In this document: positions 7,882-19,237 of the stretch, piece by piece
Layout of the letters: every line of letters begins with the position of its first letter
Position numbering within the stretch: position 1 is the stretch's first letter
Source: a virus
Taxonomy: Duplodnaviria; Heunggongvirae; Uroviricota; Caudoviricetes
Direction: 5' to 3' (one strand)
Length of the DNA stretch: 23,140 nucleotides
Virus record (IMG/VR): IMGVR_UViG_2869924733_000002
Program-made: the position numbers and the translations under genes
The notes under the pieces: model-generated
What the model saw: only the letters and a program-made list of their open reading frames with translations
What the model was told of the DNA's origin: nothing
Databases searched by the model: none

Positions 7882-8797
7882 GGCTGTGTCCCTTAATCAT
7901 CTGAGCTATAGTAACTGTCTGTTTACACAACATATTGAACTATGGCTCGCTACGACCTTCCCGATGAGGCATGGACCATCATCAAGCCCCTGTTACCTCC
8001 TGAACCCGCCACACCACGGGCCGGACGCCCATGGGCTGAGCACCGTAAAATCATCAATGGCATGTTCTGGGTGTTATGTTCCGGTGCACCATGGCGCGAT
8101 TTACCCGAACGATATGGGTCATGGAAAACTGTTTATAACCGCTTTAACCGATGGTCAAAGTCAGGCGTGATTAATATTATTTTCAACAGGTTGCTTTCGC
8201 TACTTGATGCAAACGGCTTTATTGACTGGTCTGCCACCGCGCTGGATGGCAGTAATATCCGGGCGCTGAAATGTGCCGCCGGTGCTCAAAAAAACATCCC
8301 GATATCGACGGAGATAATGGGCCGGGTCGCTCTCGCGGCGGTTTTGGCACCAAAATCCATCTGGCAACAGACGGAAGTGGCCTCCCGTTAAATATCGTGC
8401 TAAGCCCCGGACAAGCTCATGAAAGCCAGTTCGCGCAACGACTTCTGGACGGGATTGGCGTTCAGCGTCAGAACGGCAGCATGAAACGCCGTGGACATGC
8501 GGTACTGGCTGATAAAGCGTATTCAGGGCGCGCATTGCGCAACGAGCTGAAAAATAACGGTATAAAGGCAGTAATCCCCCGAAAGTCAAATGAGAAAATG
8601 GCATCGGATGGACGTGCACAGCTTGATCGTGATGCGTACTGCAATCGTAATGTCGTTGAACGGTGCTTTGGGCGGCTGAAAGAATATCGCCGCATCGCCA
8701 CGCGTTACGACAAAACGGCGAGAAATTACCTGGCGATGGTGAAACTGGGCTGCATCCGACTCTTTTATCAACGCTTACGTAATTAAGGGACACAGCC
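7882..8797 (+). mobile_element. IS5-family (IS427-group-like) insertion sequence, 916 bp
   Basis: Perfect terminal inverted repeats GGCTGTGTCCCTTAAT (7882-7897 and 8782-8797). TA duplication at 7880-7881 and 8798-8799. Confidence 0.9.
7942..8786 (+). CDS. IS5-family DDE transposase made from two frames by a -1 frameshift at an A7 run
   Basis: OrfA (7942-8391) and OrfB (8271-8786) overlap. A7 lies at 8288-8294. A -1 slip gives ...GAQKKHPDIDGDNGPGRSRGGFGTKIHLATDG... Confidence 0.85.
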
Positions 8798-9887: not shown

Positions 9888-11040
9888 AATAGCTGCGCTT
9901 AATACCGCTACACTTTTGCCAGTCCATGTTTGCCTCCGGGGAATGGGCTGACGGTTTCCATAAAATGGCGAACTTTTTTCAACAGTTGCCACATTGAGCG
10001 GCACTGATGATTACGCGTTATTGTGTCGTGAAGTGCCTGCCATAGCCGTTCAACATGATTCACCCATGGCGAGTAAACCGGCTGATAAATGACCCTGAAC
10101 TTCGGGTTCTCCTTCAGCCAGCTCTGTGTTTCCCGGCTTTTGTGGATAATGTAGTTGTCCACGATCAGCGTGATGGTTTTCGCCCGACGGTATGTCGCTT
10201 TAAGCCGCTTCAGCAGGCTGATGAACAGCGCCGAACTTTTGCTGTTGCCGCCCACATAGCTGACTTTACCTGTCCCGCTGTGCAGCGCTCCGGCCAGATA
10301 ATATTTTTCATTCTGTCCCGGCGTGACCACCCGTTTTTGCTGTCCGCGCAGTTGCCAGTCCGCACCGATTTTGGGATGAAGATGGATATCCACTTCATCT
10401 TCATAAAAGACCGGATGCTCTGCGCTGCATTCGTCCAGTGCTTTATGGATTGCTGCCATCTTTTCATCTTTATGCGGGTCACGGATACGCAGAGTTGGCG
10501 CAGCCCTTCGCCACACAATCCCCGCAGACGGCAACCAGCGGCGAACGGTTCCGGCATTTAACTGGCAACCGGTTATCTCATTGATTTTTATTGCCAGCAG
10601 TTCTGTACTCCAGCGTGAACGCTGGTAGCCAAAGTCGCCGGGAGAATGTTTTACCAGCTCACGTAACAGTGTGCAGATATGCTCAAACGGCCAGCGACGG
10701 GCACGCCCGGCAGGTAATGATTTCAGTCCCTCAACACCCGACTGCGTGAACCAGTTAATCCAGCGTCCAACAGAGGAACGGGCGCAGCAGAGCGTTCTGG
10801 CAACGTCGCTGACACGGTCGCCCCGGTGCAGCATCAGCATGGCAGTCAGTCTGCGGGCATAATTTTTATCGTGTGTTTTATGGATGGCTTTCTGCATCAG
10901 GCGTCGTTCGTCACGGGAAATTGGTGCTATGATCGGCATTGCTCAGTCCGGTTGGTGATTTGTTTTGATTTGGCGATTGATCAGATCGCACAATCCGGGC
11001 TAAGTTCCCTCAAAATGATCTACTATTCCGCGCAGCTATT
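9888..11040 (-). mobile_element. IS630, 1153 bp
   Basis: Imperfect terminal IRs beginning AATAGCTGCGC at both ends. TA duplication at 9886-9887 and 11041-11042, which restores a CTAG target. The 1153-bp length matches my recollection of IS630. Confidence 0.9.
9908..10939 (-). CDS. IS630 transposase (343 aa)
   Basis: Full-length ORF MPIIAPISRDERRLMQKAIHKTHDKNYARRL... recognised as the IS630 (Tc1/mariner-like DDE) transposase. Confidence 0.95.
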   Translation of the reverse strand: MPIIAPISRDERRLMQKAIHKTHDKNYARRLTAMLMLHRGDRVSDVARTLCCARSSVGRWINWFTQSGVEGLKSLPAGRARRWPFEHICTLLRELVKHSPGDFGYQRSRWSTELLAIKINEITGCQLNAGTVRRWLPSAGIVWRRAAPTLRIRDPHKDEKMAAIHKALDECSAEHPVFYEDEVDIHLHPKIGADWQLRGQQKRVVTPGQNEKYYLAGALHSGTGKVSYVGGNSKSSALFISLLKRLKATYRRAKTITLIVDNYIIHKSRETQSWLKENPKFRVIYQPVYSPWVNHVERLWQALHDTITRNHQCRSMWQLLKKVRHFMETVSPFPGGKHGLAKV

Positions 11041-11380: not shown

Positions 11381-12057
11381 TAGAATCCAAGCCCCCCAAC
11401 AAGACCAATAAGCCCACCACCAATAGCCCCGGCGACATTACCTATACCCGGAACAACGGAACCAAGTTGCGCACCCGCTAAAGCGCCTGATGCCGCCCCA
11501 CCAATACCACGCGCAAGACTGGATGGCTGCTGCGCCTGACCTGCACGAATAGCGCCAAGCCCCTGCAAGAGTTGCCCGGTATTATTGGCGTAGTTTTGCC
11601 CTGCTGTTGCCTGCCCTGATGCCGCATTCATCCCGACATTTAGCAGGTTTCCATAATTTTGCATTTGCCCACTGAGCCAATTGTTATAAAGCATGGGCGC
11701 AATGGAAGATAACTGGTTACTGGTAGCTGTTGAGCCAAGCCCCCCGGTAGCTTCTGCTGAGACAAGGTTCTGATAACGGGCCTGATCTGCCTGTGTTTTA
11801 TATAAACCAGAACCAAAGAAATCATTCGCGGCTTTATTCTGCCCTTCCAGAGTCATCAGTCCTTGCAGTTGTTGTAAAGCAGGCAATCCGACTTCTGCAT
11901 ACGGCTTGAGATTATTCATCACCGTATTCCACTGCTCGCGCTGCAAATCAATTGCCTGCTGCTGGGCCTTCGCCTGAGCTTTAGAGGCACCACCATCACC
12001 GCCTTTTTCGTATACGGCACGATTGAGATGTTTATGAGCTATATGGGTAATTAACAT
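11380..12057 (-). CDS. P22 gp7-type DNA-transfer (ejection) protein, 225 aa
   Basis: Size and position match gp7 (about 229 aa as recalled). It has a Gln/Asn-rich body and a Gly-rich hydrophobic tail, and is translationally coupled on both sides. Confidence 0.7.
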   Translation of the reverse strand: MLITHIAHKHLNRAVYEKGGDGGASKAQAKAQQQAIDLQREQWNTVMNNLKPYAEVGLPALQQLQGLMTLEGQNKAANDFFGSGLYKTQADQARYQNLVSAEATGGLGSTATSNQLSSIAPMLYNNWLSGQMQNYGNLLNVGMNAASGQATAGQNYANNTGQLLQGLGAIRAGQAQQPSSLARGIGGAASGALAGAQLGSVVPGIGNVAGAIGGGLIGLVGGLGF

Positions 12058-17810: not shown

Positions 17811-18001
17811 TTTTCACCCCCAAGAATTACCAGCTCGGCACGGGCATCGTTAACCAAAGATGAGCACGCTTTAATCGCATCCACGACATCAGTAGCGTCC
17901 ATTTCTTCAGCCGAAAGACTGACAGCAACCAGGACAGCCGCTGCTTGCTCGATTAATTGAAGTGCGGACGTAAGGCGAGGGGTATTAATTGAGTTATTCA
18001 T
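17807..18001 (-). CDS. Small hypothetical protein, 64 aa (start at MNNSINT)
   Basis: The ATG overlaps the upstream stop (CCAATGAATAA). Confidence 0.5.
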   Translation of the reverse strand: MNNSINTPRLTSALQLIEQAAAVLVAVSLSAEEMDATDVVDAIKACSSLVNDARAELVILGGEK

Positions 18002-18212
18002 TGGTTGCCCCCGTTTTTCCTGGCATTTCGCCACCTTCCAGCAGGAAATGAACGTCACGAACGGCGAGATCCAATATCGCGAGTAACGCCTTCAGTCTTT
18101 CGTCTCGTGAGGGAGAGTTGCTCACCAGAATGTCGTTAATCACTTCTGTCAGTGTGATGATCTGGCTTGTGCGTTCGAGGGGATCCATATGCACATCGTA
18201 GGTTTTAATCAT
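17994..18212 (-). CDS. Small hypothetical protein, 72 aa (start at MIKTYDV)
   Basis: The ATG overlaps the Icd-like stop (ACATGATTAA) and follows GGAGGTGG. It occupies the same frame as the 355-codon ORF. Confidence 0.5.
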   Translation of the reverse strand: MIKTYDVHMDPLERTSQIITLTEVINDILVSNSPSRDERLKALLAILDLAVRDVHFLLEGGEMPGKTGATNE

Positions 18213-19061
18213 GTGCCACCTCCATGCGGATACGACCAGCAAAAAAGCAGATGTGATCGCGCACCAGAGAACGGCGAGCATCGCGTTCAGACTCGGCAGC
18301 AATATGATGAATTTTGGCGGTAATTGTCGGGCAATCGCGGCGAACTGCGGCGATAATCCAGATAAATTGCGGTTTTTGGGTAGTGGTAGTAGCCAGCATG
18401 TGGCAGCCTCCTTGTACTGGGAGTTCTTCCCACCACCGGAGCTGCGAAACTCGCTGGTGGTGGACTGAACAGAGTTCGCAGTACCGGCGTACAAGGAAAC
18501 CGGCCAGCCTTTCGGCTGCCCTGTCCAGCCCACCATAATTTTGCAAGCGACGCGGATTATAACCGCATCACTGAAAAAAGTGTGAGTCTGGCTAACGGCA
18601 CAAAAAAAGACGCTCGGCGCGTCATGTGTCGCCTCGTACATTTCCGGGCTGCGAAACCCGGCACCCGTTTTATGAGGTGCCTTATAACCATAAACCGTGT
18701 TGCCGCATAACGGCAAGCTCTTTTTTATGGACTCCGAAAACTCACTATTGGAAGCACCAGATGCACAATACATCGCGCTCATTTCGTTAACGTCGCGCGT
18801 GTGGACGAAGGTTTTTGTGGAGTCACTACGCGAGCAGAGAAAGCCATCTACGACCAGAAATTCTCTGGCGCAGCCGCCGACCTTCTCAACGCTAACACCA
18901 TCGACCGTAATTTCTGACATAGTTAAGGCATCCGCTCCCACCACCAGAAAATGATAAACTTTGCTTGTATCTGCTGTATTAATGCCAGACTTTGCTGTCA
19001 TATTGCTGGATTTTGGCGACATACCAGCCAGTGAAAATATCTTCTTCTGGACGGTTAGCAT
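17994..19061 (-). CDS. 355-codon open frame, probably composite; only the 5' part (about 18546-19061) is likely to be an independent gene
   Basis: The start is strongly coupled (GGAGGTTAACAAATG overlapping the upstream stop). The frame then runs through the Ash/RNA region, across the Icd-like gene in another frame, and into the 72-aa gene. Confidence 0.35.
18205..18399 (-). CDS. Host cell division inhibitor Icd-like protein, 64 aa
   Basis: [21 protein letters not shown]...[10 protein letters not shown]...FFAGRI matches the P4 Icd-like pattern from memory. AAGGAGG lies 7 nt upstream. Confidence 0.65.
   Translation of the reverse strand: MLATTTTQKPQFIWIIAAVRRDCPTITAKIHHIAAESERDARRSLVRDHICFFAGRIRMEVAHD
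18400..18545 (-). ncRNA. Candidate P4 CI / P1 C4-type immunity RNA region (the stretch usually annotated as 'Ash family protein')
   Basis: Translates as [34 protein letters not shown] (Ash-like). It holds a GNRA hairpin (CAGCC-GAAA-GGCTG) and a CCACCACC/GGTGGTGG stem. The position upstream of icd matches P4. Confidence 0.3.
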
Positions 19062-19237
19062 TTGTTAACCTCCGCGAACTCCTTCATGAAGCGCGCCAGC
19101 GGTTGTACGCATGGCGATTGATACCCGTCGCGATAAAACGTCACTCGGTTGTGAGACACGCTTTCGACAGTAACGAGTGCTCCGTGGGCATCCTTGTAGC
19201 GTTTTTGAGGTTGTGGTGTTCCTGTCGGCTTAAACAT
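19055..19237 (-). CDS. DUF4222-like small protein, 60 aa (start at MFKPTG)
   Basis: GGAGGTGG RBS. The ATG overlaps the upstream stop by 8 nt. The motif ...HGALVTVESVSHNRVTFYRDGY..CVQPL..F..EF is recalled as DUF4222. Confidence 0.55.
   Translation of the reverse strand: MFKPTGTPQPQKRYKDAHGALVTVESVSHNRVTFYRDGYQSPCVQPLARFMKEFAEVNKC

Follow-up and report, generated by a model that had tools for sequence, protein, structure and literature searches.

The closest described relatives of the system considered here are the immI region of phages P1 and P7 (c4, icd, ant), the immunity region of phage P4, and the isrK-orf45-anrP locus of Gifsy-1 in Salmonella. In P1/P7, the antisense RNA C4 (Rfam RF01695, a family that includes P4 CI) exposes two segments, a' and b', which pair with a1/b1 upstream and with a2/b2 downstream. 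The upstream targets are covered by the Rfam family c4-a1b1 (RF03163), and a2/b2 lie at the icd ribosome-binding site, according to the passages of PMC7313666 and PMC12197685 that cite Citron and Schuster 1990. IsrK has been equated with P4 seqA (Barquist 2013, PMC3632133; Hershko-Shalev 2016, PMC4825925), and the compensatory Gifsy-1 mutants G28A/C162U and G31A/C159U prove the pairing of the IsrK leader with the orf45 sequence (PMC4825925). We analyzed a 23,140-nucleotide (nt) stretch of DNA, the IMG/VR virus record IMGVR_UViG_2869924733_000002 (“the window”). Its minus-strand region 18716-18205 is very probably an RNA-based immunity and early-operon control region, homologous to the PLE-seqA-cI-seqC-kil region of P4 and to c4-icd of P1/P7 immI. 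An earlier inspection of the letters alone (the “sequence-only reading”) had proposed a C4/CI-type RNA just upstream of an Icd-like gene.

The Rfam C4 model bears out this proposal, with a score of 81.1 bits (gathering threshold 45; E=9e-15) over model positions 1-87, i.e. the full model. Upstream of the C4 match, the isrK model (RF01394) scores 69 bits (gathering threshold 50), and its position 1 falls at 18680. The values of P4 itself are 74.9 bits for the C4 model and 60.8 bits for the isrK model, and the window exceeds both. The c4-a1b1 model gives a sub-threshold match at 18693-18641 (22.5 bits versus 46.7). Tandem isrK and C4 matches are also found in the P1-like phage RCS47, in APSE-3, in an Stx2 phage, and in E. 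coli relatives of the locus. In the alignment to P4 that the sequence-only reading had suggested, the locus is collinear and alignable with the PLE-leader-cI-seqC-kil region of that phage. The putative leader promoter aligns with P4 TTGCCT-18-TATAGT, and positions 18760-18661 are almost invariant in nine E. coli relatives despite varying flanks; the leader transcript would start near G18680. The leader ends with an intrinsic terminator, identified by a terminator scan and equivalent to P4 t1.

The mature C4 RNA is predicted to be 79 nt long (18534-18456), with ends taken from the alignment to P4 CI, which we take to end at 8501 and 8423. The minimum free energy (MFE) fold of C4 has a value of -45.8 kcal/mol (z=-4.9). 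It comprises a closing stem of 16-17 bp, two hairpins, and a single-stranded junction; the hairpin with a GNRA loop that the sequence-only reading had pointed out, CAGCC-GAAA-GGCUG at 18518-18505, is C4 hairpin 1. Across 89 aligned distinct modules, pairing of the closing stem reaches 99.9%, with changes on both sides in 10 of its 16 pairs, and 88 of the modules have an RCC tail after the stem. When the fold of the 79-nt RNA is predicted, the loop a' is unpaired with a mean probability of 0.71, and the junction stretch that was scored (18479-18473, shifted two bases relative to b') with one of 0.62. In the MFE fold, no base of the junction 18482-18475, of which b' is a part, is paired. The acceptor-like stem, the AU/GG 5' junction, and the RCC 3' tail are consistent with processing by RNase P. 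A perfect TATAAT at 18561-18556 (minus strand), about 16-22 nt upstream of the predicted C4 5' end, was considered as a dedicated C4 promoter and was rejected as a conserved feature, because it is absent from P4 and deleted in two relatives (L132 and L133).

The pairing contacts of C4 were analyzed with 120 loci from IMG/VR that share the conserved hairpin-1/hairpin-2 core, plus P4, which yielded 107 distinct modules; hairpin 1 is fixed by the pattern used to find the loci. The labels a' and b' were taken from the APSE-3 annotation (PMC7313666). Three C4 segments, i.e. a', b', and a third one at the 3' end, x', have complementary partners at fixed positions. The observed complement lengths are greater than those of cross-locus controls, and each contact is represented by 25-56 distinct co-varying sequence pairs (56 combinations for a'/a2 and 25 for b'/b2). 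The trailer target b2 is a perfect 7-bp complement of b' in 102 of the 107 loci, and x2, at a constant distance of 18 nt from the 3' end of C4, has a median complement of 9 bp. In the window, a' and a2 form an 11-nt complement (9 Watson-Crick pairs and 2 G.U; -18.6 kcal/mol), and a2 includes the Shine-Dalgarno sequence AAGGAGG (18413-18407) of the icd/kil-like gene.

The co-variation of the individual helices was quantified in the alignment of 89 distinct modules (Table 1), with controls in which the partner was slid by 1-2 columns; these were 23-57% paired. The layout is identical in the window, P4, RCS47, APSE-3, and the Stx2 phage: C4 positions 44-53, 60-66, and 77-85 pair with leader positions 41-51 and 26-32 and with trailer positions 35-49, 5-11, and 16-24. 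We take b2 to correspond to P4 seqC, and seqB, seqA, and seqC of P4 to be b', b1, and b2, respectively. The paired changes connect distant RNA segments and are not predicted by coding. In the E. coli relatives L126-L133, the flanks are more than 90% identical to those of the window, and the a, b, and x cassettes are completely different, a pattern that points to recombination within the immunity region, with an exchange of cassettes.

The sequence-only reading had centered on x', which it described as one element complementary to two flanking elements. The downstream half of this description stands. The segment UCCACCACCAG forms nine contiguous pairs with 18437-18429 (segment duplex -17.7 kcal/mol), and x'-x2 co-varies across the 89 modules, also among the E. 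coli relatives, e.g. CCGCC with GGCGG. The stronger complementarities of the loop a' and the junction b' had been missed, as had the pairing of the middle element within the closing stem. In fact, x' comprises the last six bases of the 3' strand of that stem, the ACC tail, and the two bases after it. With a mean unpaired probability of 0.33, x' is free only in the ACC tail. It pairs with x2 only, which is located between b2 and a2. A small hairpin lies between x2 and a2 (18438-18420, minus strand; UGGGA-AGAAC-UCCCA), with the equivalent AUAGC-GUUAUUU-GCUAU in P4 and likewise in other loci. The variable end of x2 is shared with the 5' arm of this hairpin, and x2 may thus either form part of the hairpin or pair with the 3' end of C4. 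A Chi site on the plus strand (18453-18460) matches the complement of the C4 3' end (CCACCAGC) exactly.

Table 1. Features of the immunity region, with pairing statistics of the C4 helices (window positions; helix values from 89 distinct modules)
Feature	Position	Strand	Remarks
Putative PLE-like sigma-70 promoter	18687-18716	-	-35 TTGCCG (18716-18711), 18-nt spacer, -10 TATGGT (18692-18687)
IsrK-like leader RNA, equivalent of P4 seqA	18680-18603	-	Rfam RF01394
Leader hairpin 1	18680-18661	-	
Leader hairpin 2	18660-18645	-	b1 in the loop
Target b1, UUCGCAG	18655-18649	-	pairs with junction b', 7 nt
Target a1, UGUACGAGG	18640-18632	-	pairs with loop a', 9 nt including a G.U
Intrinsic terminator of the leader	18623-18609	-	hairpin, followed by a U-run
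C4/CI antisense RNA	18540-18453	-	Rfam RF01695 (P1/P7 C4, P4 CI)
C4 closing stem	18534-18519 with 18474-18459	-	predicted fold
C4 hairpin 1	18518-18505	-	GAAA loop, inside the closing stem
C4 hairpin 2	18504-18483	-	10-nt loop in the predicted fold; carries loop a' (18499-18488)
Junction b', CUGCGAA	18481-18475	-	single-stranded
x' (middle element), CCACCACCAG	18464-18454	-	end of the closing stem and ACC tail
3' ACC tail	18458-18456	-	
Trailer target b2, UUCGCAG	18448-18442	-	complementary to junction b'
Trailer element x2, CCGGUGGUGGG	18439-18429	-	complementary to C4 3' end x'
Trailer target a2, GUACAAGGAGG	18417-18407	-	complementary to loop a'
icd/kil-like open reading frame	18205-18399	-	64 amino acids; NCBIfam NF033153 (phage_ICD_like), 70.4 bits
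355-codon stop-free frame, “ash family protein”	17994-19061	-	from the list of open reading frames
Upstream site proposed as “seqA”, CUGGUGGUGGG	18947-18937	-	listed for exclusion; about 260 nt upstream of the leader promoter
Helix b'-b1			99.7% of cells paired; 6 of 7 pairs changed on both sides
Helix b'-b2			97.6% of cells paired; 6 of 7 pairs changed on both sides
Helix a'-a1			98.4% of cells paired; 7 of 8 pairs changed on both sides
Helix a'-a2			92.3% of cells paired; 6 of 9 pairs changed on both sides
Helix x'-x2			96.8% of cells paired; 7 of 9 pairs changed on both sides; slid controls 23-33%

The following mechanism is proposed. A constitutive promoter (18716-18687) would make the leader, and most transcripts would stop at the intrinsic terminator (18609-18602), giving rise to a 78-nt IsrK-like RNA. 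Read-through transcripts would carry the tRNA-like C4/CI RNA (about 79 nt), and RNase P together with 3' trimming presumably releases it. Its two exposed specificity segments, the hairpin-2 loop a' and the junction b', would pair with a2 and b2 in the nascent trailer and occlude the Shine-Dalgarno sequence of the icd/kil-like gene. The untranslated RNA would then be terminated early, and the downstream genes, including the primase-helicase gene (16034-13275), would stay silent; C4 would in this way act in trans as the immunity factor, by translation block and premature termination. Additional pairing of a'/b' with a1/b1 in the leader could act as feedback, of the kind that raises leader termination in P4 and that in Gifsy-1 lets the short leader RNA counteract repression. 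The x'-x2 contact might lock the complex via the free ACC toehold, converting loop kissing to a locked state, or might act during processing, as a switch linking RNase P cleavage with target recognition. The homology, the fold, and the co-variation of each contact are shown here; processing, termination, and the immunity phenotype are inferred from P4, P1, and Gifsy-1.

The upstream half of the sequence-only description has to be weighed against this mechanism. It assigned to CCACCACCAG the role of P4 seqB, pairing with GGTGGTGGG both upstream, in a seqA 480 nt away (18947-18937), and 15 nt downstream. The three elements do lie on the minus strand where it had placed them, UCCACCACCAG at 18464-18454, CUGGUGGUGGG at 18947-18937, and CCGGUGGUGGG at 18439-18429. 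The upstream site even has the strongest single segment duplex (11 nt, with 10 Watson-Crick pairs and one G.U; -20.5 kcal/mol), and it could act on transcripts that enter from the ant-DUF4222 operon. The motif GGTGGTGG occurs five times in the window, versus 0.49 expected from shuffles. This null understates the background, because the minus-strand RNA contains two more unrelated sites in which 10 nt or more are complementary (11423-11413 and 6022-6013) and the 23-kb window has 16 Chi sites (GCTGGTGG; 10 on the plus and 6 on the minus strand). At least 8 nt of complementarity is found at eight sites of the minus-strand RNA outside of the module, and the chance expectation of one such site within 500 nt upstream is roughly 0.07-0.17. 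CTG-GTG is a favored Leu-Val codon pair in E. coli; 18947-18937 reads CTG GTG GTG GGA in the 355-codon frame, i.e. a common CTG-GTG/Chi-like coding motif, and the comparable sites at 11423 and 6022 reflect the same bias, so that one match in the 500 nt upstream is unremarkable. Relatives that share the flank of the site were obtained from nine E. coli genomes, eight IMG/VR loci, and 23 metagenome loci, about half of the latter being usable, which resulted in 24 distinct usable sequences; a pattern scan of genome contigs for this flank yielded only chance matches in unrelated metagenome-assembled genomes. The core CTGGTGGT is kept in all 24, and the variation at base 18939 (G, A, or C) is compatible with x' in 15 of them; the window type, for instance, combines G with C, and the type of relative L126 combines A with U. 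However, a fit of 15 of 24 is what linkage alone would give, and 18939 is the synonymous third position of a Val codon. In these relatives a', a1, a2, b', b1, b2, x', and x2 change together, whereas the upstream site does not follow: where x' is CCGCC and x2 is GGCGG, it remains GGTGG, and the pair is broken without compensation in nine relatives (L130 to L134, L136, L141, L149, and L160). Complements of x' are not enriched far upstream in 100 related loci (-650 to -176; mean of 8.05 versus 7.79 in controls), nor in the leader (6.25 versus 6.50 in controls). Furthermore, the site precedes the leader promoter and would be absent from a PLE-type transcript, and x' is buried in the 16-bp closing stem. 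The two-sided co-varying partners belong instead to the hairpin-2 loop and the junction after it, and the true upstream target is the isrK-like leader (18680-18603), 110-170 nt upstream. As originally formulated, the model with x' as seqB is very unlikely, and the site 18947-18937 is most likely incidental and outside of the module.

It could also be argued that the region is primarily protein-coding and that its conservation reflects an “Ash” protein rather than RNAs. The ATG of the 355-codon frame overlaps the stop codon of the DUF4222 gene (ATGCTAA) and is preceded by GGAGG, the annotation pipeline PGAP predicts “ash family proteins” of 355 amino acids in several genomes, and the Pfam family PF10554 (Phage_ASH) matches with 99.2 bits, above the gathering threshold. 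Moreover, the frame is stop-free across leader, C4, and trailer in 77 of 97 distinct relatives, versus 16 of 111 shuffles. Yet the Pfam match (residues 124-232) coincides exactly with isrK, C4, and trailer (18692-18366). The “Ash family” domain is the translation of this RNA-encoding DNA, and membership therefore says little about protein function. The suspicion of the sequence-only reading that the RNA is mis-annotated as a protein is thus supported as far as the domain is concerned, but the conserved stop-free frame calls for a caveat. The first 123 codons are near-neutral (12 synonymous-only versus 35 amino acid-changing variable codons) and antisense to a fragment of a terminase gene, the frame is out of register with icd in the window (62 relatives have it in register with the kil/icd start), and PGAP flags the coding sequence as partial or pseudo in many genomes. 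Taken together with the compensatory pairs, which coding does not predict, a primarily protein-coding nature of the region is extremely improbable. Several further points weigh against an active RNA immunity module. The leader promoter matches 8 of 12 consensus bases and was missed by a simple promoter scan; use of the promoter, cleavage by RNase P, both ends of the mature RNA, and termination are all inferred for this locus; and the trailer order b2, x2, a2 is not collinear with the C4 order a', b', x', so that the three helices cannot form one continuous duplex. MFE co-folding of the whole molecules, which cannot represent loop-loop contacts, shows no net gain (ddG about 0), and the duplexfold value for C4 and the leader is not better than those of shuffles (87 of 300 were as low). 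Whole-molecule folding being uninformative, segment duplexes and co-variation were used instead. Lastly, P22-like ejection-gene remnants and insertion sequence (IS) transposases follow the primase gene, and in strain UTME-6 the primase is interrupted by IS1203, so that the island may be decayed and the module present but idle. That the module is a non-functional relic is nevertheless improbable: the RNA elements are all intact and score above those of P4, the pairings are perfect, the primase-helicase frame is intact in the window (919 amino acids), and 325 complete E. coli records carry the locus (18150-19100) with an identity of 99% or more. A functional RNA immunity region is thus the reading that we prefer.

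The stop-free frame is most plausibly reconciled with an RNA immunity region by an eta-like frame of which the translation, and not the product, matters. In P4, the eta frame is reportedly translated from an upstream late promoter, and its translation is said to prevent immunity-dependent termination; the frame of the window is possibly of this kind. Its conservation among the relatives suggests that translational anti-termination of the eta type is general and not specific to P4. The x'-x2 complement co-varies in P4-like, P1-like, APSE, and Stx-phage modules. The combined proposal, i.e. that x'-x2 is a third specificity contact beyond the a'/b' scheme and that eta-type anti-termination is general, is tentative and rather doubtful. 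No stop codons occur in the first 123 codons in 21 close variants, and roughly three would be expected there; the variable columns at codon positions 1, 2, and 3 of the frame number 22, 14, and 25, respectively. In this part of the frame, 107 nt (18913-18807) are 86-88% identical to genes for the terminase small subunit (“DNA-packaging protein”) of other E. coli prophages, in the orientation opposite to that of the frame. This stretch, between DUF4222 and the immunity promoter, is apparently an embedded gene fragment.

The window derives from an E. coli chromosomal island. Relatives of the region 18150-19100 are present in 1091 of 5426 complete E. coli genomes, i.e. in about a fifth, and 479 of the 5426 carry most of the locus. 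In strain UTME-6, the island adjoins proA and a tRNA-Thr gene; the immunity region very probably belongs to a P4-like integrative element inserted beside proA/thrW. The annotated gene order in this strain is integrase, DUF6387, AlpA, a hypothetical protein, AntA/B antirepressor, DUF4222, “ash family protein” (pseudo), “host cell division inhibitor Icd-like protein”, small open reading frames, and primase-helicase. The same Icd-like frame as in the window is annotated by PGAP in UTME-6; it is the first translated gene after the immunity RNAs and is homologous in position and sequence to the 65-codon frame after cI in P4. Pfam analysis of the window proteins confirmed the integrase, the AntA domain, DUF4222, and the Toprim/DUF927 primase-helicase. 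Of the gene set of P4-like satellites in the strict sense (integrase, AlpA/Vis, alpha primase-helicase, and the capsid-size and late-control genes sid, delta, and psu), the integrase, AlpA, and a DUF927/Toprim primase-helicase are present, as is int-alpA RNA; sid, psu, and delta were not found among the window open reading frames that were scanned.

The int-alpA RNA (Rfam RF02996; 21865-21798, minus strand; 46.7 bits versus a gathering threshold of 35.8) sits between the integrase gene (23140-21926) and the DUF6387/AlpA genes. The material beyond the primase-helicase gene (12512-8804 on the minus strand, 1-819, and 9908-10939) makes the island a mosaic. It includes genes or remnants of P22-type ejection proteins (DUF2824, gp7, and the C-terminal part of an injectosome translocase), two transposases (IS630-type DDE_3 and IS3-type rve), and a PRiA4_ORF3-like gene.

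Systems of this kind have been described before, and for a specialist the picture of how it works is unchanged. One value of the analysis lies in annotation, since RefSeq records an “ash family protein”, often a pseudogene, instead of two regulatory RNAs. In addition, the a', b', and x' cassettes that are exchanged between near-identical elements represent a route by which immunity specificity would diversify, and the comparison set provides natural compensatory variants for studies of antisense control of the P4 and P1 types.

In comparison with P4, the order of elements is the same, i.e. promoter, leader with intrinsic terminator, an 87-nt match to the C4 model, trailer targets, the Shine-Dalgarno sequence GGAGGCUGCC, and an icd/kil gene of 64/65 codons. 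Window positions 18730-18370 align to P4 8745-8350 with a mean column identity of 75%, the leader terminator is almost identical (GACGCGCC..GCGUC, then a U-run), and the three complementarities are at the same positions. In contrast, the specificity sequences differ throughout: a' is UCCUUGUAC in the window and UCCUGUGAA in P4, b' is CUGCGAA versus UUCUCAC, and x' is UCCACCACC versus GCUAUCGCC, which implies a different immunity type. Within P4, the partners are swapped accordingly (UCCUGUGAA with UUCACAGGA, UUCUCAC with GUGAGAA, and GCUAUCGCC with GGCGAUAGC). Further differences are the spacer between terminator and C4 (62 nt in the window, 107 nt in P4), the register of the long frame (in register with kil in P4, out of register with icd in the window), the upstream neighbors (AntA/B antirepressor and DUF4222 versus orf88/vis), and the lack of sid, psu, and delta from the genes seen in the window.

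Gifsy-1 shares the IsrK leader with its own terminator and, after it, a processed RNA (STnc1160, about 80 nt), and by position mapping its pairs G28/C162 and G31/C159 would represent the b1-b' contact. It differs in two respects: its short leader RNA is an activator of orf45-anrP translation, and there is an overlap between its C4-like part and a 45-codon open reading frame, whereas in the window the match to the C4 model is complete and an Icd-like gene follows. With P1/P7 immI the window shares the fold of the antisense RNA. Two features set it apart from those phages, namely an antirepressor-family gene that lies upstream of the module and not downstream of icd, and controlled genes that are the replication genes of a P4-like element.

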